Below, piece by piece: positions 132 to 9,589 of a stretch of 9,589 bases of DNA. The notes under the pieces were generated by a model. The model ran no database searches. It saw only the letters and a program-made list of their open reading frames with translations, and was not told the origin of the DNA. Origin of the DNA: a virus (lineage: Duplodnaviria; Heunggongvirae; Uroviricota; Caudoviricetes); the IMG/VR virus record IMGVR_UViG_2563366982_000003; one strand, written 5' to 3'. Position numbers and translations under genes: made by a program. The first letter of the stretch is position 1, and each line of letters starts with the position of its first letter.

Positions 132-203
132 TATGGCACCTGTGTTGTTCTGAGGTGAGCATATCACCTCTGTTCAGGTGGCCAAATTCAGTAAACCACT
201 TCA
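1..203 (-). mobile_element. IS3-family (IS911-like) insertion sequence, partial: left terminal repeat and 5' part of orfA; element continues beyond the window start
   Basis: Minus-strand sequence from 203 downward reads TGAAGTGGTTTACTGAATTTGGCCACCTGAACAGAGGTGATATGCTCACCTCAGAACAACACAGGTGCCATA-ATG, an IS3-family-type end (TG...) followed about 70 nt later by an ORF beginning [43 protein letters not shown], which I recognise as IS911 OrfA (HTH N-terminus). Boundary at 203 inferred from the TGAAGTGG terminus. Not checked against ISfinder. Confidence 0.75.
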
Positions 204-798
204 CACTGCACAGTGATGCTGTCCGGCGATCAATTATCTGGTGCAATACCACCTGCTCGTTTTTCGTCTCCCGCTGAACGCCTATTTCATCCAGGACCAG
301 CAAATCAACCCCGCAAAGCTCCTGTAAAAATTTTTCCCCGGATTTGCCGTTGTCGTAACTGTCATGCAACACGCTCATGACGTCAGACACGGTGACGATA
401 ATCACGCTGCGCCCCTTCACCATCAGCCGGTTGCCCATCGCCGCTGCAAGGTGATTTTTCCCGGTGCCGGTTTTACCGCTGAACACAAAATTCGTGCACC
501 CGGTCATCAGTTCGTCAGCTATGGATTTGGCCTGGCTCAGCGCGTATTTTTGCCCGTCGTTCTGCACCTGATAATTTGCAAACGAGCATTTGCTGTGCAG
601 AGGCTGGATGCCCGAACGATTCAGGATTTTTTCCACCCGCAACTGGCGATTCTGGCGGTTAATCTCCTCGCTGCGTTTTCGTCCTTCAGCAAGTTGCCAT
701 TCCCGCCACTCCTCCACCGTCCGGTACGGTGGAACCGACCCCTGTGGTGCAAGTCTGCGAATACGTTCAAGAACCCCAACTGCCGCAATGTTTTTCAT
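100..798 (-). CDS. DnaC-like replicative helicase loader (AAA+ ATPase); native reading frame ends near 204, the last ~35 codons (100-203) are IS-derived read-through, so the gene is 3'-truncated by the IS911-like insertion
   Basis: 232-aa ORF with Walker A ([15 protein letters not shown]) and Walker B (DLLVLDEIG) and a DnaC-like layout (...[17 protein letters not shown]...); SD-like GGGGGTG upstream of the ATG at 798; the C-terminal tail [15 protein letters not shown]... is encoded by the IS terminal repeat. DnaC homologs carry about 45 more residues after the DRR(S/T) motif. Confidence 0.75.
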
Positions 799-804
799 GA
801 CACG

Positions 805-1767
805 TCACCCCCTGAATCCCGGCGGTATTTCAGTGTCCGGTTCAGAAATGTGATTCACGCAACGCTGCGCAGGCGAACGCCCCAGGCGGATAACCAGTTC
901 ATCCCATTTTTCCCGGAGTTTTGCCGGACTCATGATGTTTTTTACCCAGAACGAATCCCGCTGGAGACGCCCAAACATTTCACAAATTTGTCTGTGAGTT
1001 CTGCCATCCAGCATCCGCATTGTGCGAACGTCATTGGCCCATGCTGTCCAGTTGGGTTCTTTCGGTCTAGTGATCTCGCCATCATAGCTGGCCGCCTGCT
1101 CGTAAAGACTCACGATTCGTCCCCAGATCCACTGTGCGCACACCAAATCTTCCTGACTTCCCCACTGGCGTTTTTTCGCACTGAACACAACCGCGTCAGG
1201 GTGTCGGGTTAAAAAATCCTGTTCAGCCGTCTGCGGGTCCGGTTGCGAAGCGTCCGGACAAGAAGATCTTTTATCTGACGGATCAGGTTTTAATACTGAC
1301 GGATCGGGGTCAATCATCGCCCCCCTAATCGGCAGTTTTTTATCAACAGTTGATCCATCAAAATTTGACGGGTCAACCGTTGAGGGGTCAATATTTGACG
1401 GGTCAACTGTTAACGGGTCATTTTTTGCCGGGCTAATTTTTCTTTTCGGTTTATATGACTCACGCGCCGCCGCCGCAGCTGCTTCGAGTTTTTCCACATT
1501 AAGCCGATAGATATTGCTTACATTACGCCCACCGACCTTACGCTCTTCCTTCGTCAGCCAGCCCTCTTTCGCCAGTTCTGCAATAGCCGATTTCACTGTG
1601 GATTCACTTCTTGCACCGATCTGACGCCGGATAGTTTCAATGGCAGGCCATGACACACCCTCGTCATTGCTGTAGTCTGCAAGACGGGCCATAACCGCCA
1701 CCCTGGATAAGATCATGCCGGTGAAGGCGCACCCTTCCCAGACAAGACCATGAAGCTTGCTGCTCAT
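805..1767 (-). CDS. Phage replication initiation protein (lambda O-like in function; N-terminal winged-HTH, internal iteron-encoded peptide repeats, C-terminal DnaT/YdaU-like domain)
   Basis: Long minus-strand ORF (track 805..1782, GTG start); I prefer the ATG at 1767, preceded by GGGGG. N-terminus LVWEGCAFTGMILSRVAVMARLADYSNDEGVSWPAIETIRRQIGARSESTVKSAIAELAKEGWL is typical of replication-initiator HTH domains. Internal DPSNIDPSTVDPSNFDGSTVD peptide repeat is encoded by DNA iterons. Stop lies 6 nt upstream of the dnaC-like ATG, the O-then-loader order of lambdoid replication modules. Confidence 0.7.
   Translation of the reverse strand: MSSKLHGLVWEGCAFTGMILSRVAVMARLADYSNDEGVSWPAIETIRRQIGARSESTVKSAIAELAKEGWLTKEERKVGGRNVSNIYRLNVEKLEAAAAAARESYKPKRKISPAKNDPLTVDPSNIDPSTVDPSNFDGSTVDKKLPIRGAMIDPDPSVLKPDPSDKRSSCPDASQPDPQTAEQDFLTRHPDAVVFSAKKRQWGSQEDLVCAQWIWGRIVSLYEQAASYDGEITRPKEPNWTAWANDVRTMRMLDGRTHRQICEMFGRLQRDSFWVKNIMSPAKLREKWDELVIRLGRSPAQRCVNHISEPDTEIPPGFRG
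1350..1439. repeat. Six tandem 15-bp iterons (consensus TTGAcGGGTCAAy-nn) inside the initiator gene: candidate phage origin of replication
   Basis: Plus-strand units: ttgatccatcaaaat / ttgacgggtcaaccg / ttgaggggtcaatat / ttgacgggtcaactg / ttaacgggtcatttt / ttgccgggctaattt (1350-1439). Each unit contains an internal dyad (TTGAC...GTCAA). Placement inside the initiator gene parallels the lambda ori iterons within O. Confidence 0.6.
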
Positions 1768-1789: not shown

Positions 1790-2215
1790 TTAGTGCATCA
1801 CCACAGCATTCCCTGCCGGGCCGCCGCGATTCATCTGGTCATACAAAACAACCGCTGACGCAACAAAATCATCGACATCCTTCACCAGCCGATCCCTCCG
1901 TTCGACGATCTCACGGTAATATTCAGAACTGTGGCTGCGCATACGGGCCACCAGCAAAGGCGGCATCGCCTTTTCGATCGCCGGTAACAGAGCCTGCATT
2001 TTTTCAACAGCATCAGGGGTGTCTTTATCCAGCCAACGGAAAATTTTCTGGGTATTACGGGCCAGGGCTTCCGGATGGCTGTCGTCATACAGTTCCGGGA
2101 ACGTCATTCCCAGCTCGAAATACGCTTTGGTAATTTTCGCAGCCGGTACTTTTTCGCCGTCCGGATGCGCCCAGACATTCATCGCCATGCGGATGTGTTC
2201 ATGCTTGATTTTCAT
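1790..2215 (-). CDS. ydaT: YdaT-family protein (CII-like regulator / putative toxin family of Rac-type prophages)
   Basis: 141-aa ORF beginning MKIKHEHI..., matching my memory of the YdaT family N-terminus and size (~140 aa); start ATG overlaps the upstream gene stop (ATGA at 2212-2215), implying translational coupling with the ydaS-like gene. Confidence 0.65.
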   Translation of the reverse strand: MKIKHEHIRMAMNVWAHPDGEKVPAAKITKAYFELGMTFPELYDDSHPEALARNTQKIFRWLDKDTPDAVEKMQALLPAIEKAMPPLLVARMRSHSSEYYREIVERRDRLVKDVDDFVASAVVLYDQMNRGGPAGNAVVMH

Positions 2216-2514
2216 GAATCAACTCCATCAGATAAGCATGTACTACAATCACCTTCAGCATGAACTACATGTGTTTGCCCCAAACGAATGCCGCTCGCAT
2301 ACTCAGGCCAAATAAGCTCCCAATCATGGGGTCGTAGCTCCGCCCTACTTACTTGGCCTTCCGTCGCAGATTCGATCATAAGGGCGCGGGTTGGAGATAT
2401 AGCTGTTCGTCCAGACGCCATTTGCGATAAGTAAGATGGCGATACACCAAGTCTGGCCGCGAATTTCTTAGCATCACCAACCCTTAATGATTTAATAAAC
2501 TCTTTTAATGTCAT
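2212..2514 (-). CDS. ydaS: YdaS-like Cro-type HTH DNA-binding protein (Cro analogue of the switch)
   Basis: 100-aa ORF; HTH signature KKFAARLGVSPSYLSQMASGRTAISPTRALMIESATEGQVSRAELRP; SD GAGGAAGG 4-12 nt upstream of the ATG at 2514; divergent from the regulator gene at 2612. Confidence 0.7.
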   Translation of the reverse strand: MTLKEFIKSLRVGDAKKFAARLGVSPSYLSQMASGRTAISPTRALMIESATEGQVSRAELRPHDWELIWPEYASGIRLGQTHVVHAEGDCSTCLSDGVDS

Positions 2515-2611
2515 ACCTTCCTCGGTTTAGTGTTTTTTTGCGAGTTTAGTGTTTAATAAACCATTAAGTCAAGTATTTGCTTGTTTAGTGATTACTAAAG
2601 ATAATTACCAC
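2515..2611. promoter_or_regulatory. Divergent promoter/operator region between ydaS-like (minus) and paaR2-like (plus): repeated heptamers GTTTAGT/GTTTAAT and palindromes, candidate -35/-10 elements for both directions
   Basis: GTTTAGT at 2525-2531, 2544-2550, 2583-2589; GTTTAAT at 2551-2557 with complement AATAAAC at 2555-2561; perfect dyad TTTAGT-GATT-ACTAAA at 2584-2599. Candidate plus-strand promoter: -35 TTGCTT (2577-2582), 17-bp spacer, -10 GATAAT (2600-2605). Candidate minus-strand promoter: -35 TTGACT (complement of 2567-2572), -10 TAAACT (complement of 2543-2548). A further TTTAATAAAC copy lies at 2491-2500, inside the first codons of ydaS. Confidence 0.55.
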
Positions 2612-2983
2612 ATGCAAAAAAAAGAAATTCGCCGTTTACGTCTCAAGGAGTGGTTTAAAGATAAAACTCTGCCACCCAAAGAGAAGAGCTACCTATCTCA
2701 ACTAATGAGTGGGAGAGCCTCGTTTGGAGAAAAGGCTGCCAGAAGAATAGAGCAAACATACGGGATGCCGGAAGGGTATCTGGATGCGGAATACGCAGAA
2801 CAACCGGGGGTTTCTCCACCACATGCAGGGTTAACGTCTAATCAACTGGAATTATTGCAGATTTTTTCAGCCTTCCCTGAGGATGAGCAACGCCAGATAA
2901 TCAGCGAGTTAAAGCAGAAAAAAGAATCAATGGAAGATCTCATAGCGAGATGGATTGCGGCGCAAAAATGCCGCCGCGCCTGA
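2612..2983 (+). CDS. paaR2: HTH (XRE/cI-type) transcriptional regulator of the three-component ParE toxin-antitoxin module; occupies the cI position of the prophage switch (PaaR2-like)
   Basis: 123-aa ORF from ATG 2612 (the track's 2549 start is a GTG lying inside the operator repeats, with no SD); HTH region LSQLMSGRASFGEKAARRIEQTYGMPEGYLD; no peptidase S24 domain; directly upstream of the antitoxin/toxin pair. Symbol from memory of the E. coli O157:H7 paaR2-paaA2-parE2 system; the paralogous paaR1 module cannot be excluded without alignment. Confidence 0.6.
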   Translation: MQKKEIRRLRLKEWFKDKTLPPKEKSYLSQLMSGRASFGEKAARRIEQTYGMPEGYLDAEYAEQPGVSPPHAGLTSNQLELLQIFSAFPEDEQRQIISELKQKKESMEDLIARWIAAQKCRRA

Positions 2984-3003
2984 GTTATAAAACCGGAGGA
3001 AAC

Positions 3004-3195
3004 ATGAATAGAGCCCTTTCACCAATGGTTTCTGAATTTGAAACCATTGAACAAGAAAACAGTTACAACGAATGGCTGCGTGCGAAAGTAGCAACGAGCC
3101 TTGCAGATCCGCGCCCAGCAATTCCCCATGACGAAGTTGAGCGCAGAATGGCAGAACGCTTTGCTAAGATGCGTAAGGAACGGAGCAAGCAGTAA
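3004..3195 (+). CDS. paaA2: Small antitoxin of a ParE-family toxin (PaaA2-like, 63 aa)
   Basis: 63-aa ORF MNRALSPMVSEFETIEQENSYNEWLRAKVATSLADPRPAIPHDEVERRMAERFAKMRKERSKQ from ATG 3004 with SD GGAGGA at 2995-3000; stop TAA at 3193-3195, 1 nt before the toxin ATG. Size and operon position match the PaaA2 antitoxin as I recall it from the literature. Confidence 0.7.
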   Translation: MNRALSPMVSEFETIEQENSYNEWLRAKVATSLADPRPAIPHDEVERRMAERFAKMRKERSKQ

Positions 3196-3196
3196 A

Positions 3197-3475
3197 ATGT
3201 TACCCGTGTTATGGCTTGAAAGCGCAGATACCGACCTAGATGATATAACTAGTTATATTGCTCGTTTCGACATAGATGCGGCTGAACGCTTATGGCAGCG
3301 ATTAAGGGGTTGTGTGCTGCCGTTATCCGAACATCCGTATTTATACCCACCAAGCGACAGAGTACCTGGCTTGCGTGAGATTGTAGCCCACCCTAACTAT
3401 ATAATTCTATACCGCGTAACAACATCAAGCGTTGAAGTAGTAAACGTGATCCACGCAAGACGCCAGTTTCCCTAA
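3197..3475 (+). CDS. parE2: ParE/RelE-superfamily toxin (ParE2-like)
   Basis: 92-aa ORF from ATG 3197: MLPVLWLESADTDLDDITSYIARFDIDAAERLWQRLRGCVLPLSEHPYLYPPSDRVPGLREIVAHPNYIILYRVTTSSVEVVNVIHARRQFP, with the characteristic ParE C-terminal pattern (...YRV...V.V..H.RR..). The track's 3101 start overlaps the antitoxin and is rejected. Confidence 0.8.
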   Translation: MLPVLWLESADTDLDDITSYIARFDIDAAERLWQRLRGCVLPLSEHPYLYPPSDRVPGLREIVAHPNYIILYRVTTSSVEVVNVIHARRQFP

Positions 3476-3559
3476 CTTTCACTACCAATAGAAACATAAC
3501 AACCGCAACGACTTTATCAAAAGCGTTGTGTTTGTTATGCCCCGCGGTTTAGTTTTTAC

Positions 3560-3590
3560 TTGACTTAAGTTTAATGTTTATTAAACTAAA
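3560..3590 (+). promoter_or_regulatory. Candidate repressor-controlled promoter of the dicB-type operon: -35 TTGACT, operator palindrome GTTTAAT-GTTT-ATTAAAC, -10 TAAACT
   Basis: -35 TTGACT 3560-3565; 16-bp spacer; -10 TAAACT 3582-3587. A perfect 7-bp inverted repeat with 4-bp spacer (3569-3586) fills the spacer and -10 and is near-identical to AGTTTAGTGTTTAATAAAC at 2543-2561 in the divergent switch region. The stretch TTGACTTAA-GTTTA..TTAAAC is shared by both loci. Confidence 0.5.
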
Positions 3591-3766
3591 AATACCAACC
3601 CACCCCGCCCCACAGAACGCAGGGAAATACTTCGAGTTACCCGGCAGTGGTCAGGGGTTAAGTAGCCAGCCCGAGGCGTATGAACATGACGGCGGGAACA
3701 CTTTGTATAACAGCGCAGCAGGTTTTTTGTTCCGCTACCCCGGCGTTAAGGGGAAATGAGGTCAAC

Positions 3767-3919
3767 ATGGATACGCTCAATCTTGGCAACAACGAATCTC
3801 TGGTATGCGGTGTGTTCCCTAACCAGGACGGCACCTTCACCGCGATGACGTATACCAAAAGTAAAACGTTTAAAACCGCAGCTGGTGCGCATCGCTGGTT
3901 AGCAAGAAACACTGACTGA
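3767..3919 (+). CDS. ydfA: YdfA-like small prophage protein (first gene of the dicB-type operon)
   Basis: 50-aa ORF from ATG 3767 (MDTLNLGNNESLVCGVFPNQDGTFTAMTYTKSKTFKTAAGAHRWLARNTD) with SD GAGG at 3758-3761; the track's longer 3680 start lacks an SD. Size and position match Qin ydfA as I recall it. Confidence 0.6.
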   Translation: MDTLNLGNNESLVCGVFPNQDGTFTAMTYTKSKTFKTAAGAHRWLARNTD

Positions 3920-3930
3920 TGAGGTTGACG

Positions 3931-4269
3931 ATGGAATTTAAAGATTTACCTCCTTCAATCCAGGAGATTGCAGCACACACACTTCGTCATCGTCTGAACG
4001 AACTTGAATTGGAATCGGTAACAAAAAAAGACACTGATAATATGGCTCGCAATGTGCGCGATGCGTTTACTGGGCTGTTTTCAGATACAGCTTTAAATAT
4101 CCATGGCACAGAGGATACAGCAAAACAATTTGCAGAAAAAGAAGTGGAAGATCCCAGTTCAAAGAGCCAGAAACAGCCAAACAACCATGAAATTAACGAA
4201 CTGCTTCTGGCAACAGGCTTCATAAATATTAACGAATATGAACGCCGTAAAAAAATGTTATCTGATTAA
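3931..4269 (+). CDS. Hypothetical prophage protein of the dicB-type operon (possibly the intact counterpart of Qin ydfB plus ydfC)
   Basis: 112-aa ORF from ATG 3931 (MEFKDLPPSIQEIAAHTLRHRLNELELESV...) with SD GAGG 3921-3924; an alternative ATG at 3919 overlaps the ydfA-like stop. No recognisable domain; acidic/Lys-rich C-terminal half. Confidence 0.5.
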   Translation: MEFKDLPPSIQEIAAHTLRHRLNELELESVTKKDTDNMARNVRDAFTGLFSDTALNIHGTEDTAKQFAEKEVEDPSSKSQKQPNNHEINELLLATGFININEYERRKKMLSD

Positions 4270-4452
4270 TCCATCAAGATATCTTTTTAGCATCAGCGTT
4301 TCTACGTTATTAAAACCATCAGATTTTAACATAGCTTCGATTCGCTGATTTAAATTGCCAACTAACTGTTGATACTGAGTAGATGGAAGCATGTGTACCA
4401 GCTCCTTGAGAACACAATAACATGCACCAAGTTTTAACTCCTGCTCTGACAT
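4258..4452 (-). CDS. Candidate small protein gene (64 aa) antisense to the dicB-operon transcript, in the gap between the ydfB/C-like gene and DicF
   Basis: ATG at 4452-4450 preceded by a consensus SD (GGAGGA-taaa-ATG); translation MSEQELKLGACYCVLKELVHMLPSTQYQQLVGNLNQRIEAMLKSDGFNNVETLMLKRYLDGLIR; AT-rich codon usage (TTA, AGA, CTT). No plus-strand ORF of comparable quality exists between 4270 and 4790. No homolog recognised. Confidence 0.35.
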   Translation of the reverse strand: MSEQELKLGACYCVLKELVHMLPSTQYQQLVGNLNQRIEAMLKSDGFNNVETLMLKRYLDGLIR

Positions 4453-4791
4453 TTTATCCTCCATTGAGGTTACTGGTTGAGAATGGAAACCTCTCGTGAC
4501 AGCGTGTGGTCGTGCGCCGGACACGGATAAGAATCCGGCACTGACAGTTTACTGAAAGGATATTTCCCTGAAAAGTCAGACCATAACGCGAAAGCGTACG
4601 GCGAGGTAGCTGGTTCATAGATAGCCTGTCGTTAAATTTTCGTCGACCGTGCGCTTCCGGTTGTGGCAATCCGCGAAATGGCGCGGCGGTAAGTATGGCG
4701 GGGTTATTCCTTCCCCCGTTGAGGACACCGGGTTGTCAGGTTGACCATACGCTTAAGTGACAACCCCGCTGCAACGCCCTCTGTTATCAAT

Positions 4792-4848
4792 TTTCTGGTG
4801 ACGTTTGGCGGTATCAGTTTTACTCCGTGACTGCTCTGCCGCCCTTTT
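4792..4848 (+). ncRNA. dicF: DicF small regulatory RNA (ftsZ-targeting sRNA of Qin-type prophages), including its 3' stem and U-tract
   Basis: Sequence TTTCTGGTGACGTTTGGCGGTATCAGTTTTACTCCGTGACTGCTCUGCCGCCC + TTTTT matches my memory of the 53-nt DicF RNA; GGCGG (4807-4811) / CCGCC (4839-4843) pairing followed by a T-run gives a rho-independent 3' end; lies 180 nt upstream of the dicB ATG as in the Qin dicB operon. Exact 5' end not determinable from sequence. Confidence 0.75.
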
Positions 4849-5027
4849 TAAAGTGAATTTTGTGATGCGGTGAATGCGGCTGAGCGCACGCGGAACAGTT
4901 AAAGCAGTAAGGCGGTCTTTTACTGGCGTAACGAGCATCAACTAACCCGGCGTTAATTGTTAACTGGTTAACGTCACCTGGAGGCACCAGGCACTGCATC
5001 ACAAAATTCATTGTTGAGGACGCGATA

Positions 5028-5216
5028 ATGGAAACGTTATTACCAAACGTTAATACGTCTGAAGGTTGTTTTGATATTGGTGTTCTGCTCAGTAACCGGG
5101 AGTTTACTGAAGATGCCATTAATATGAGGAAATATGAGCCTTATCTGCTCAATGATAATTCCATACTTTCCCGAATTGCTCTTCTTGAACTTGGTATTTT
5201 CGGAGAGCGTCAATGA
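5028..5216 (+). CDS. dicB: Cell-division inhibitor DicB
   Basis: 62-aa ORF METLLPNVNTSEGCFDIGVLLSNREFTEDAINMRKYEPYLLNDNSILSRIALLELGIFGERQ; matches DicB in length and N-terminal sequence (M-TLLPNVNTSEGCF...) as recalled; SD GAGGA 5016-5020; follows DicF. Confidence 0.85.
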   Translation: METLLPNVNTSEGCFDIGVLLSNREFTEDAINMRKYEPYLLNDNSILSRIALLELGIFGERQ

Positions 5217-5401
5217 CTTCAGCATTTGCACTGATGATGACGGTTTTTCTTATAACGGGTGAATCACAGAATGTGATTACCGGAATTTATGCCAGTAAAG
5301 AATCCTGCCTCCAGGCAAGAGACGAGCAAAAAATTTCTGGTGAATGCCTCCCGGTAAAAAAAGTATCGCTGTACCTGAATAACGAAACACCGGCTGGATA
5401 A
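5213..5401 (+). CDS. ydfD: YdfD-like small membrane protein (Qin-type prophage lysis/toxicity protein)
   Basis: 62-aa ORF with start ATG overlapping the dicB stop (ATGA at 5213-5216); hydrophobic N-terminal segment FALMMTVFLITG, consistent with a single transmembrane helix; position matches ydfD after dicB. Confidence 0.7.
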   Translation: MTSAFALMMTVFLITGESQNVITGIYASKESCLQARDEQKISGECLPVKKVSLYLNNETPAG

Positions 5402-5493: not shown

Positions 5494-6055
5494 ATGAGCA
5501 CTGATAAAGAAGAATTTGCGCTATATTGCGAAGCAAAAAATGACAAAGTCAGAAAACGTCTGGGAATTAAAGGTGGTTTTTACTGGACTACAGCAAAAAA
5601 ATTATCTGTTGCCATCTCCCGCTGCATTACCGCAATGGATGACAACGATTATGATGAAGACGACTTTAAAAAACCCGTTCGCGTCCATTTACCCGTTGTG
5701 AATGACCTTCCACCTGAAGGCGTGTTTGATACCGAATTCTGCAACCGATACGAAAAAGGCGGGGAAGATGGCATTACAATGGTATTTATCGCGCCCTCTC
5801 CCTCCGTGCAGGAGAAACCAGCCAGTACTGACAATACCAACGTCAACGGCGAAGACATGACGGAGATTGAGGAGAATATGCTCCTGCCGGTTTCTGGTCA
5901 GGAGCTGCCCATTCGCTGGCTTGCGCAACACAGCAGCGAAAAACCAGTAACGCACGTTGCACGGGAAGAACTTCAGGCATTACATATAGCACGGGCGGAA
6001 GAACTGCCGGCTGTTACTGCCCTGGCCATTTCTCACAAAACAAAGCTGCTCGACC
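5494..6055 (+). pseudogene. RecE-like (exodeoxyribonuclease VIII family) prophage exonuclease gene, N-terminal fragment, interrupted by an IS21-family insertion
   Basis: ORF from ATG 5494 (SD GAGG 5482-5485); the track ORF 5494..6105 reads 50 nt into the IS terminal repeat before a stop. Deleting 6056-8193 (IS plus one repeat copy) rejoins this frame exactly to the frame open from 8193 to the window end (...HKTKLLD|[24 protein letters not shown]...). Assignment to the RecE family is from recalled similarity of the N-terminal region and the synteny after dicB/ydfD. Confidence 0.6.
6049..6055. repeat. Left copy of the 7-bp direct repeat (CTCGACC) flanking the IS21-family element: putative target-site duplication
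   Basis: CTCGACC at 6049-6055 immediately before the IS terminus TGTCA; identical heptamer at 8187-8193 immediately after the other terminus. Confidence 0.55.
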
Positions 6056-6115
6056 TGTCAACGCCACGATGTTTGACCGTTATTTGCCATTTTCATGCCC
6101 GCTAAGATACTTTCG

Positions 6116-8085
<1,970 letters not shown>

Positions 8086-8186
8086 GTTGATGTCCTTTCT
8101 GGTGTGAGAACCTTAAGGAAACAACATGTTGGGTGGAGCGGACAATCCAAATGGTGAATTACCGTCTTATATCACTGGCGCTGACA

Positions 8187-8193
8187 CTCGACC
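8187..8193. repeat. Right copy of the 7-bp direct repeat (CTCGACC) flanking the IS21-family element
   Basis: See left copy; only removal of the IS plus exactly 7 bp restores the exonuclease reading frame. Confidence 0.55.
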
Positions 8194-9589
8194 CGCTGGA
8201 GATTCGCGACCTTCACAAACTGGTACGCGACACTGACAAAGTTTTCCCTAATCCCGGTAATTCAGACCTGGGACTGATAACTGCTTTTTTCGAGGCATAC
8301 CTGGACGCTGATTACACTGATCGGGGTCTGCTGACAAAAGAGTGGATGAAAGGAAATCGTGTTTCGCGTATCACCCGTACGGCTTCCGGTGCAAATGCCG
8401 GTGGCGGGAACAAAACCGATCGCAATCCGAATTTAGTACACACCTTCGATGCGCTGGATGTGGAGATTGCAGCAGCCACACTTCCGATGGATTTTAATAT
8501 TTATGAAATTCCGGGCAGCGTTTATCGTCGCGCAAAAGAAATCGTCCTGAAAAAAGAAAGTCCGTTCAGGGAATGGTCCGCAGCACTTCGCGCAACCCCT
8601 GGTATCCTGGACTATTCCCGCGCAGCTATTTTTGCACTTATCCGAAGCGCCCACCCTGAGTTTTATCACTACCCGGGGCGCCTTCAGGGGTATATCAATG
8701 CCAACCTGACAGAAACTGATCACGAGAATCCCACAGCTGAAACGCTCATGGCTGCCCGGCATACACCGGAAAAAGATATCCTGGAAGAAATTAACGGCGG
8801 ACTGGCTGCTGAGTGCAAAACAGAAGAAGAAAAAAATGATGAAGATAACCCGCAACCATCTGGCGCAATGGCAGATGAACAGGCAACGGCTGAAACAATG
8901 GCAGCGGATACAGTTGAACATCATCAGGACCCGCAGCCGCTGGATGACAAGTCACAGGTAAAAGTTACCGCTGACGAAGTAAACAAAATTATGCAGGCAG
9001 CCAATATCAGCCAGCCTGACGCCGATAAGTTGCTTGCTGCCTCTCGCGGAGAATTTGTTGCAGGGATTAGCGACCCGAATGATCCGAAATGGGTAAAGGG
9101 GATTGAAACCCGCGATTCTGTAAACCAGAACCAGCAAGAATCGGAACAGAACGACCAGAAAGCGGAACAAAACAGCCCAAATGCGTTACAAAACGAGCCA
9201 GAAACGAAACAACCTGAACCAGTAGTGCAACAGGAACCGGAAAAGATCTGCACCGCCTGCGGTCAGACCGGCGGCGGCAACTGCCCTGATTGTGGCGCGG
9301 TGATGGGCGACGCAACATACCAGGAAACATTCGATGAAGAGAATCAGGTTGAAGTTCAGGAAAATGATCCGAAGGAAATGGAAGGCGCTGAACATCCACA
9401 CAAGGAGAATGCTGGCAGCGCTCAGGATCACGCCAGCGATAGTGAAACTGGCGAGACGGCAGATCCCTTAATTACGGTGAACGGTCATCATGTTATCACA
9501 TCCACCAGCAGGACGTGTGACCATCTAATGATCGACCTTGAAACCATGGGAAAAAATCCTGATGCCCCGATCATCTCAATAGGTGCAAT
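8187..9589 (+). pseudogene. RecE-like prophage exonuclease gene, C-terminal continuation after the IS21 insertion (open to the window end): Q/E-rich low-complexity linker, CxxC-x10-CxxC zinc-ribbon motif, start of a DEDD (DnaQ-like) 3'-5' exonuclease motif
   Basis: One frame is stop-free from 8091 to 9589 and is absent from the ORF track because it has no stop in the window. Translation ...[51 protein letters not shown]...; acidic/Gln-rich segment about 9100-9240; [16 protein letters not shown] at 9249-9296; [10 protein letters not shown] (Exo I-like D-x-E) at 9522-9551. All minus-strand ORFs listed for 8433-9431 are antisense to this frame. Confidence 0.6.

Follow-up and report, generated by a model that had tools for sequence, protein, structure and literature searches.

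The region described here lies in a 9,589-nt stretch of viral DNA, the whole of which was analysed and is called the window. A CI-like repressor gene, paaR2, starts at 2612 on the plus strand, and a Cro-like gene, ydaS, starts at 2514 on the minus strand. The 97 bp between them hold promoter-like sites on both strands, so this is the lambdoid arrangement of divergent repressor and Cro-like genes around a short region with both promoters. The regulator, PaaA and ParE genes form one operon with gaps of 20 nt and 1 nt, as in the PaaR-PaaA-ParE three-component toxin-antitoxin (TA) systems. PaaR2 and YdaS have the helix-turn-helix (HTH) motif SYLSQ[LM]xSGR in common (35% identity over 46 aa, E = 3e-4). 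A LexA-like Peptidase_S24 autocleavage domain, the lambdoid trait behind SOS induction, was not found in PaaR2, which had no Pfam match. This domain is present in relatives with the same HTH and operators (L021, 4.8e-24; L026, 2.8e-17), and DicA likewise is without a RecA-cleavage (Ala-Gly) site (PMC10448788). The role of YdaT is that of a PRE activator (PMC8630535), and the motif of the YdaT box is published in PMC9986795. All features are collected in Table 1.

Table 1. Genes, promoters, operators and RNA features of the immunity region and the operon beyond it (positions in the window).
Feature	Position	Strand	Evidence
ydaT-like gene (CII analogue)	1790..2215	-	Pfam YdaT_toxin 2.8e-10; protein identical to EDL933
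YdaT box TTGATT-N6-AATCAA	2205..2222		sole perfect match in window, 0.04 expected
ydaS-like gene (Cro analogue)	2212..2514	-	Pfam YdaS_toxin 3.3e-12, HTH_3 6e-7, weak P22_Cro
Half-site operator (GTTTAGT only) in ydaS 5' UTR, probably published IR4	2525..2542		assigned by position
PR-type promoter of ydaS-ydaT, TTGACT-18-TAAACT	2543..2572	-	promoter scan; PR933P 5' RACE, PMC8630535
Operator dyad GTTTAGTGTTTAATAAAC over PR spacer and -10, probably published IR3	2544..2561		27.2 bits
PRM-type promoter of paaR2, TTGCTT-17-GATAAT	2577..2605	+	read from sequence
Operator dyad GTTTAGTGATTACTAAAG filling PRM spacer, probably published IR1	2583..2600		21.9 bits
paaR2, CI-like repressor, 123 aa, without S24 domain	2612..2983	+	no Pfam match; homologue search
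paaA2 antitoxin	3004..3195	+	Pfam PaaA2 1e-19; identical to EDL933
parE2 toxin	3197..3475	+	Pfam ParE_toxin 1.9e-16; identical to EDL933
Strong hairpin between parE2 stop and PL, candidate end of paaR2 operon	3495..3539	+	folding, inverted repeat
Weaker operator GTTTAGTTTTTACTTGAC overlapping PL -35 (OL2-like)	3547..3564		12.7 bits, borderline
PL-type promoter, TTGACT-16-TAAACT, predicted start ~3594	3560..3587	+	promoter scan
Operator dyad GTTTAATGTTTATTAAAC over PL spacer and -10 (OL1-like)	3569..3586		22.8 bits; identical in EDL933
5' leader common to heteroimmune prophages; immunity-module mosaic boundary at 5' end	3596..3766	+	alignment
ydfA (DUF1391), first gene past PL	3767..3919	+	Pfam DUF1391 1.6e-29
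DicF small RNA	4793..4844	+	Rfam RF00039, 76.7 bits vs gathering score 48
dicB cell-division inhibitor	5028..5216	+	Pfam DicB 6.4e-37
ydfD (DUF1482)	5213..5401	+	Pfam DUF1482 2.9e-15

At the divergent switch, dyads lie over the PR -10 and within the PRM spacer. The PRM hexamers, TTGCTT (2577-2582) and GATAAT (2600-2605), are 17 nt apart, and the dyad TTTAGT-GATT-ACTAAA that the initial annotation placed in the spacer of the regulator promoter was found there on reading the sequence, at 2584-2599, where it fills the spacer. Transcription of paaR2 starts at the A of its ATG, and the message is leaderless, according to 5' RACE and N-terminal sequencing (MQKKE; PMC8630535). The gap between the -10 and this ATG is fixed at 6 nt and is kept in 15 genera. 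At the switch, four 18-bp inverted repeats have been reported at equal spacing, and in two of these one half is degenerate (PMC8630535). The dyads of the window were matched to IR1-4 and OL1-3 by position rather than from published figure coordinates. In both PR and PL, the -10 hexamer consists of the TAAAC half-site of the dyad and the next T.

The second operator cluster lies past the repressor operon, as expected of a lambdoid immunity region, with the dyad at 3569-3586 and the weaker site at 3547-3564 placed on the TTGACT-16-TAAACT promoter. The motif GTTTAnTTTTTACTTGAC is kept at the position of the weaker site in other genera. The 90 nt from 3476 to 3565, in which the hairpin is the main structure, fold at -23.5 kcal/mol (z = -4.07), and 0 of 200 shuffles were as stable; no U-tract directly follows the stem. 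Folding of the conserved leader (3594-3770) showed nothing unusual (z = +0.86).

The 18-bp dyads of the form GTTTA-N8-TAAAC lie at 2544-2561, 2583-2600 and 3569-3586. The initial annotation had described near-identical palindromes in a like promoter context at the two loci, and this description was accurate to the letter and the coordinate: 2543-2561 reads AGTTTAGTGTTTAATAAAC and 3568-3586 reads AGTTTAATGTTTATTAAAC, with 17/19 positions identical, and the promoter scan gives TTGACT...TAAACT at both loci. TTGACTTAA is found at 3560 (+) and 2564 (reverse complement), and TACTTGACTTAA occurs perfectly, one copy per locus, in opposite orientations (0.03 expected). The heptamer GTTTAGT recurs as described, at 2525, 2544, 2583 and 3547, with no further copies on either strand of the 9.6-kb window; this count of 4 compares with 0.92 expected and was reached in 1 of 200 shuffles. 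A motif scan of the window, with 2543-2561 as the query and up to 3 mismatches, returned only the query itself and 3568-3586, while 200 shuffles gave 0 matches. With up to 1 mismatch, GTTTA-N8-TAAAC is found in the window at 2544, 2583 and 3569 only (0.27 expected). A weight matrix was trained solely on sites from other genera and then applied to the window, giving the scores in bits in Table 1. The best score in shuffled windows had a mean of 5.7 and a peak of 13.6, which makes the site at 3547-3564 borderline. The dyads, the heptamers and the copies of TACTTGACTTAA are far beyond chance expectation. A matrix of best 18-mer matches between OR and OL across four immunity types was dropped, since the AT-richness of all regions left it without discriminating power: the value for the window (16/18) equalled the shuffle maximum of 16. 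It was replaced by the whole-window pattern tests, the cross-genus site count and the matrix from other genera.

Judged by its sequence, the window comes from a lambdoid prophage of the CP-933P/Sp12 type, as in E. coli O157:H7, and carries its immunity region. The intergenic region (2515-2611) is 100% identical to that of EDL933, and five positions differ between 2150 and 3690, none in the dyads or promoter hexamers. The OL/PL core differs at 3540 and 3558 only, outside the dyad and both hexamers. PaaR2 carries V67G, and the one substitution in YdaS is T92A. All EDL933 primers of the published work map to the window without mismatch (PMC8630535), which places the EMSA fragment at 2515-2611, the footprint fragment at 2473-2661 and the PL reporter at 3476-3593. 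By this mapping, the dyad at 2544-2561 falls within the published PaaR2/YdaS DNase I footprint region.

For CP-933P, binding of PaaR2 (CI-like) and YdaS (Cro-like) to the switch region was shown by EMSA and footprinting (Jurenas et al. 2021, PMC8630535). The downstream promoter was named PL933P and its operators OL1-3, transcript starts of PR933P and PRM were mapped by 5' RACE, and bistability was demonstrated (PMC8630535). The PR, PRM and PL reporters were each repressed by PaaR2 and by YdaS, and the active PL933P-gfp fragment was repressed ~100-fold by either (PMC8630535). The direct binding data concern the 97-bp switch region only; at PL, what was shown is that a reporter is repressed when the regulators are over-expressed from pBAD24 (PMC8630535). 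The prediction that one set of repressors acts at both the switch and the downstream promoter has therefore been shown for CP-933P, on near-identical DNA. The 18-bp dyads, with the family consensus GTTTAGTAATTACTAAAC, are the operators recognised by PaaR2 and YdaS.

We consider it highly probable that the window holds a CP-933P-type immunity region in which shared operators serve both the switch and PL and control the early-left operon. One dyad lies over the spacer and -10 of PR, which drives ydaS-ydaT, and another fills the spacer of PRM, which drives the leaderless paaR2-paaA2-parE2 message, so that occupancy by PaaR2 or YdaS would block RNA polymerase and produce a bistable switch. About 1 kb on, past the toxin gene and the hairpin, the same dyad again forms the -10 of PL, whose hexamers equal those of PR. 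With the weaker site over the -35, PaaR2 and YdaS would thereby shut off the early-left operon. PaaR2 octamers, whose presence in solution is cited in PMC8630535, may bridge OR and OL over ~1025 bp (the distance between dyad centres).

An alternative that we find unlikely is that PaaR2 alone acts at PL naturally and that YdaS represses it only when over-expressed. Lambda Cro binds OL, and the recognition motif is common to YdaS and PaaR2, both of which speak against this. YdaS also repressed PL933P as strongly as PaaR2 did, but the regulators were induced from pBAD24 in that assay (PMC8630535). Moreover, deletion of the Cro analogue dicC in Qin left dicBp-lacZ activity unchanged (PMC10448788), and at its natural level the Cro analogue may therefore contribute little to the control of PL.

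In our preferred reading, with shared operators serving the switch and PL, the operon controlled would be that of ydfA, DicF, dicB and ydfD, which lie on one strand behind the repressor-controlled promoter as in the Qin-type dicBF operon. The genes ydfB and ydfC, found between ydfA and DicF in the Qin type, are absent from the window; their place is taken by a 112-aa ORF and an antisense ORF of 64 aa (4258-4452, -), neither with a Pfam match. The PL-to-DicF interval of 1.2 kb is also unlike that of Qin. Past 3756, where the window has ydfA and the 112-aa ORF, EDL933 carries another segment with a minus-strand gene; homology resumes before DicF, which is also found 3' of PL933P in EDL933. PL transcripts would start near 3594 and run through ydfA, DicF and dicB-ydfD to the exonuclease gene, as those of Qin dicBp do. 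Transcription of DicF and dicB from PL is suggested by the gene order, by the Qin DicA/dicBp precedent and by a simple scan of the plus strand from 3588 to 5100, which revealed neither a further promoter-like site nor a terminator-like one. The dicBF mRNA of Qin is polycistronic from dicBp, without an internal promoter, and DicF is cut from it (PMC10448788). The same order, from PL through ydfA, DicF, dicB and ydfD to the exonuclease gene, is seen with four different repressors. Jurenas et al. could assign no function to the ORFs past PL933P (PMC8630535), and the literature found on a link between CP-933P and dicF consisted of general reviews, none of which states PaaR2 control of DicF/dicB.

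A somewhat less probable alternative than the one concerning YdaS accepts 3569-3586 as a real operator and promoter but has the transcripts end or be processed at ~3600-4700, with DicF and dicB expressed from another start. The convergent 64-aa ORF lies within this interval and could disturb or end PL transcription. The absence of ydfB/ydfC compared to Qin, the different segment in EDL933 and the lack of an assigned function in the published work point the same way. The empty promoter and terminator scan, the processing of DicF from the dicBp transcript in Qin and the recurrence of the gene order under four repressors all favor readthrough from PL.

Conservation was assessed by phylogenetic footprinting of 27 PaaR2-homologue loci from other genera (163 kb). 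Exact GTTTA-N8-TAAAC occurs in 44 copies, 25 at the switch, 19 downstream and 0 elsewhere, compared to 0.25 expected. The 19 downstream copies lie past the repressor gene and closely follow a -35-like element, giving a PL-like site in 19/27 loci, and in the downstream sites listed the next base is T, which completes a TAAACT-type -10. No convincing downstream site was present within 3 kb in three loci (L019, L024 and L032), L025 has a degenerate candidate at +747, and the sequence of L029 is too short for a downstream site to be judged. The distance from the repressor gene to PL differs among the homologue loci, indicating a variable cargo slot. It is very improbable that the likeness of the two loci is a chance or low-complexity effect of AT-rich DNA, or a relic of promoter duplication without an operator role at the second locus: both regions are AT-rich and the crude 18-mer comparison did not exceed its shuffle maximum, but whole-window shuffles never reproduce the match, many genera keep the site at an unchanged position in the promoter despite diverged flanks, and both PaaR2 and YdaS repress a reporter that contains it (PMC8630535). 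Prophages of the RacR, HTH139 and DicA types with the same ydfA...dicB operon have their own, different repeats at both places. Homology to the RacR- and HTH139-type loci begins at ~3596, directly past the -10, and homology to Qin only near ydfA. These data show that the operator-promoter unit moves with the repressor gene as one module through many genera.

A 2021 paper (PMC8630535) already described the operators common to both loci, the PL-type promoter and its repression by either regulator. The bistable PaaR2/YdaS switch has so far been discussed as a regulator of a TA module. Lambda and Qin DicA/dicBp are long-known cases of the same regulatory logic, and little is added as discovery. 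What is added here is the presence of the dyads across genera in the 27 loci, the variable cargo slot and the separate operators of heteroimmune prophages. The practical value is a well-validated annotation, which would put DicF and DicB of this strain under the control of a bistable prophage switch that is already characterised. DicF and DicB affect cell division, metabolism and phage resistance. It is possible, though we hold this only tentatively, that in O157:H7 and related E. coli one copy of DicF/DicB is naturally turned on and off by the PaaR2/YdaS switch and, in addition, that PaaR2-type operators mark one unusually conserved immunity group in Gamma- and Betaproteobacteria, with OR and OL bracketing a swappable slot. 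If so, the YdaS-ON subpopulation would be the cells that make the division inhibitor and the small RNA, and the slot between OR and OL, which the repressor might join in a loop, would be empty or hold a TA pair, an Arc-like gene or unknown genes.

The initial annotation took a PL equivalent downstream of the toxin gene as a departure from lambda, and this part does not hold. The lambda topology is the same, with PL downstream of cI-rexA-rexB and firing in the same direction, and paaA2-parE2 hold the slot of rexAB between the repressor gene and PL. Lambda and the window also have in common that the repressor and cro genes diverge, that the repressor mRNA is leaderless, that operators overlap PR and PRM, and that a second operator cluster lies on a promoter past the repressor operon and directed away from it. 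Octamer formation is a further likeness of lambda CI and PaaR2, as far as it is cited in PMC8630535. In contrast, the operator sequence is unrelated to that of lambda, four 18-bp switch repeats are reported for CP-933P compared to three lambda operators, PaaR2 differs from the lambda repressor in being without Peptidase_S24, and the OR-OL spacing is ~1.0 kb compared to ~2.4 kb. No N/nut system of the lambda type was seen in the window.

The closest relative is CP-933P/Sp12, which is the same element apart from the few substitutions given above; IS insertions elsewhere further set the window apart from the CP-933P of EDL933. Qin, with DicA/DicC, is alike in having a PL-like promoter behind the repressor gene, at the head of ydfA...DicF-dicB-ydfD. 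In Qin, too, operators are common to the divergent region and dicBp, and a subpopulation switches spontaneously (Ragunathan et al. 2023, PMC10448788; Bejar et al. 1988 as cited there). Unlike the window, Qin has another repressor, TGTTAG...CTAACA-type repeats, no TA genes between the repressor and the promoter, ydfB/ydfC and a shorter leader. Rac-type prophages with RacR/YdaS have the same gene order as the window, and in a RacR-type locus with the ydfA-dicB operon, TAGGC-N4-GCCTA-like repeats lie at the switch and again at the promoter upstream of ydfA. Their repressor family and operator sequence differ from those of the window, and they are therefore heteroimmune.

Near-identical 19-mers had been reported in the initial annotation at the divergent switch between ydaS and paaR2, which holds promoters PR and PRM, and at a further promoter, PL, about 1 kb downstream past parE2. 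Their positions were exact (2543-2561 and 3568-3586), and 17 of the 19 bases match. Each contains an 18-bp dyad, GTTTA-N8-TAAAC, and a third copy, mismatched at one outer position, is located at 2583-2600. With up to one mismatch allowed, these three are the only such dyads in the window (0.27 expected). When the whole sequence was scanned with 2543-2561, allowing three mismatches or fewer, only the query itself and 3568-3586 were found, and 0 of 200 shuffles gave a match. All four copies of the GTTTAGT heptamer fall within the two intergenic regions, and the perfect 12-mer TACTTGACTTAA occurs once per locus, in opposite orientations (0.03 expected). The claimed promoter context was recovered at both loci by a promoter scan: TTGACT-18-TAAACT at 2572-2543 on the minus strand and TTGACT-16-TAAACT at 3560-3587 on the plus strand. 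Both -10 hexamers consist of the TAAAC half-site of the dyad and the T that follows; therefore, the two promoters are alike in where the operator sits with respect to the -10. As proposed for the regulator promoter, a dyad lies in its spacer: the third dyad occupies the 17 nt from TTGCTT (2577-2582) to GATAAT (2600-2605). This paaR2 -10 is 6 bases ahead of the ATG at 2612. The initial observation was confirmed in every detail, far beyond chance.

The gene layout is that of a lambdoid immunity region plus an early-left operon, and DicF scored 76.7 bits against Rfam. Within the O-like gene, at 1343-1432, an iteron-like sequence (TCAAC.GTTGA.GGG) is directly repeated five times at a 15-nt period; this is probably the origin of prophage replication, as it is in lambda O. 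A perfect TTGATT-N6-AATCAA box (2205-2222) spans the ydaS stop and ydaT start. It falls within the published PRE933P fragment (window 2187-2306) and agrees with the YdaT recognition sequence given in PMC9986795. The window also carries insertion-sequence DNA. Positions 1-203, reversed, match the end of an ISEc52 (IS3-like) copy located elsewhere in the related strain FDAARGOS_1293 and truncate the DnaC/IstB-like gene. An IS21-family element (6056-8186), absent from FDAARGOS_1293, cuts the Exonuclease VIII/RecE-like gene into 5494-6055 and 8187-9589.

Coordinates of genes and published fragments in the window, and of two repressor relatives in their own loci
Feature	Coordinates	Strand	Remark
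DnaC/IstB-like replication gene	203-798	-	left of switch
O-like gene	805-1767	-	left of switch
YdaT-family gene	1790-2215	-	
YdaS-family HTH gene	2212-2514	-	
PaaR2 gene		+	right of switch; 123 aa; no Pfam match
PaaA2, ParE2 genes		+	after PaaR2
DUF1391 (ydfA), 112-aa ORF, DicF, DicB, DUF1482 (ydfD)		+	beyond PL
112-aa ORF	3931-4269	+	between ydfA and DicF; no Pfam match
Convergent 64-aa ORF	4258-4452	-	between ydfA and DicF; no Pfam match
Exonuclease VIII gene		+	after ydfD; interrupted by IS21-family element
IstB	6116-6916	-	IS21-family element
IstA	6913-8085	-	IS21-family element
Published EMSA fragment	2515-2611		
Published footprint fragment	2473-2661		
Published PL reporter fragment	3476-3593		
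Relative with Peptidase_S24	L021 3001-3630		
Relative with Peptidase_S24	L026 3001-3654		

Published work on the same region, in the CP-933P prophage of E. coli O157:H7 strain EDL933, found that PaaR2, YdaS, and YdaT behave as CI, Cro, and CII (Jurenas et al. 2021; PMC8630535). In that work, PR933P and PRM933P were confirmed by 5' RACE, paaR2 was found to be leaderless, and the 97-bp intergenic region was shifted and footprinted by both PaaR2 and YdaS. Four inverted repeats of 18 bp, evenly spaced and sharing the half-site consensus GTTTAGTAA, lie in this region. The -35/-10 elements of an additional promoter, PL933P, are identical to those of PR933P; PL933P has three operators (OL1-3), and either PaaR2 or YdaS repressed its gfp fusion about 100-fold (PMC8630535). 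The published primers map on the window with zero mismatches. From 2150 to 3690, the window and EDL933 show only five differences, none within 2515-2611, and the published experiments are therefore directly applicable to it. The differences at 3540 and 3558 are near PL, but outside the dyad and both hexamers; the protein changes are PaaR2 V67G and YdaS T92A. The prediction that one repressor set acts at both the switch and the downstream promoter was right in substance, and this shared-operator reading is already known, having been published with experimental support in 2021 (PMC8630535).

Occupancy of these dyads by PaaR2 and YdaS is most likely the mechanism. At low concentration, PaaR2 dimers or higher oligomers would fill the dyads over the PR and PL -10 elements, keeping ydaS-ydaT and the early-left operon silent; PRM would be stimulated by low PaaR2 and repressed by higher PaaR2 through the spacer dyad; and YdaS would bind these sites too, but with its preference reversed (PMC8630535). 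The HTH regions of PaaR2 and YdaS have the motif SYLSQ[LM]xSGR in common, which fits recognition of the same operators. Since PaaR2 octamerises, putative looping between the operators at the switch (OR) and at PL (OL) over 1025 bp is plausible. A strong hairpin at 3495-3539, past the parE2 stop and ahead of the PL -35, dominates the 90 nt of 3476-3565 (-23.5 kcal/mol, z = -4.07), with no adjoining U-tract. This candidate end of the paaR2 operon would bar PRM transcription from the PL operon and is possibly a tImm-like terminator or a stabiliser.

It is reasonable to infer that the PL-type promoter drives ydfA-DicF-dicB-ydfD. A simple scan of the plus strand from 3588 to 5100 gave no other promoter-like or terminator-like sites, and the ydfA...dicB gene order recurs behind four repressor types. 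The Qin dicBF mRNA is polycistronic from dicBp without an internal promoter, and the same source characterises dicBp as PL-like and as sharing three operators with the dicA-dicC region (PMC10448788). On the other hand, the window has other ORFs, including a convergent one, in place of ydfB/ydfC of Qin, and Jurenas et al. could assign no function to the ORFs after PL933P (PMC8630535). Downstream of PL933P, EDL933 has DicF, dicB, a DUF1482 gene, and an exonuclease gene, with yet another segment in place of window 3931-4452. Our modest addition is to tie DicF/dicB explicitly to the PaaR2/YdaS switch in this strain.

A second modest addition is that the OR/OL pair is conserved family-wide around a variable cargo slot. 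A homologue scan with one genome per species gave 27 loci with PaaR2 relatives (L007-L033, 163 kb) from Xenorhabdus, Photorhabdus, Yersinia, Erwinia, Morganella, Arsenophonus, Raoultella, Massilia, Mycoavidus, and other genera. Identity was 43-57% across most of the protein or, where the alignment was confined to the N-terminal 58-87 residues, 56-76%. Exact GTTTA-N8-TAAAC dyads numbered 44 (0.25 predicted from composition), 25 of them before the repressor gene, 19 after it, and 0 elsewhere. All 19 downstream dyads have a -35-like element immediately upstream, and those listed are followed by a T, completing a TAAACT-type -10; the common form is GTTTAnTTTTTACTTGAC-N3-dyad-T. A weight matrix built from the foreign sites (consensus GTTTAGTAATTACTAAAC) agrees with the published half-site and recovers the three strong dyads of the window, and 3547-3564 more weakly. 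The switch core is kept across 15 genera, as is its fixed 6-nt spacing from -10 to ATG. This switch DNA (both dyads, both promoters, and leaderless spacing) is conserved to a degree far above the norm for immunity regions of phages. The Xenorhabdus/Photorhabdus group differs in that its leaderless ATG starts a mini-ORF of about 14 codons, followed by a leadered repressor gene. The downstream operator lies 445-2293 nt from the repressor start, and the slot is either empty or holds the TA pair, a gene encoding an Arc-like ribbon-helix-helix or DUF4236 protein, or unknown ORFs (L021, L023, L026, L027, and L033 have cargo ORFs). Some relatives with the PaaR2-type N-terminal HTH and the same operators have a Peptidase_S24 C-terminal domain, so PaaR2 looks like a member of a classical CI lineage whose own C-terminal domain was replaced.

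Heteroimmune prophages with the same ydfA...dicB operon under another repressor have their own repeats at both the switch and the downstream promoter: TAGGC-N4-GCCTA-like in the RacR type, ...AGTACAT in the HTH139 type (139-aa HTH repressor), and TGTTAG...CTAACA-like in the DicA type (Qin). Homology of the window with RacR- and HTH139-type loci begins at about 3596, directly past the -10, and with Qin only near ydfA. Therefore, the operator-promoter unit belongs to the immunity module, as it does in lambda imm434/imm21 hybrids. The 170-nt leader upstream of ydfA (3596-3766) is kept among the PaaR2, RacR, and HTH139 types despite unrelated immunity regions; its predicted fold is not unusual (z = +0.86), and an ORF from 3680 reads in frame into ydfA. 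Placement of the PL equivalent downstream of the toxin gene had been regarded as a departure from lambda, but there is no such contrast. The lambda order is equivalent, with PRM, cI, rexA, and rexB followed by PL firing onward, and the paaA2-parE2 pair here takes the position of rexAB.
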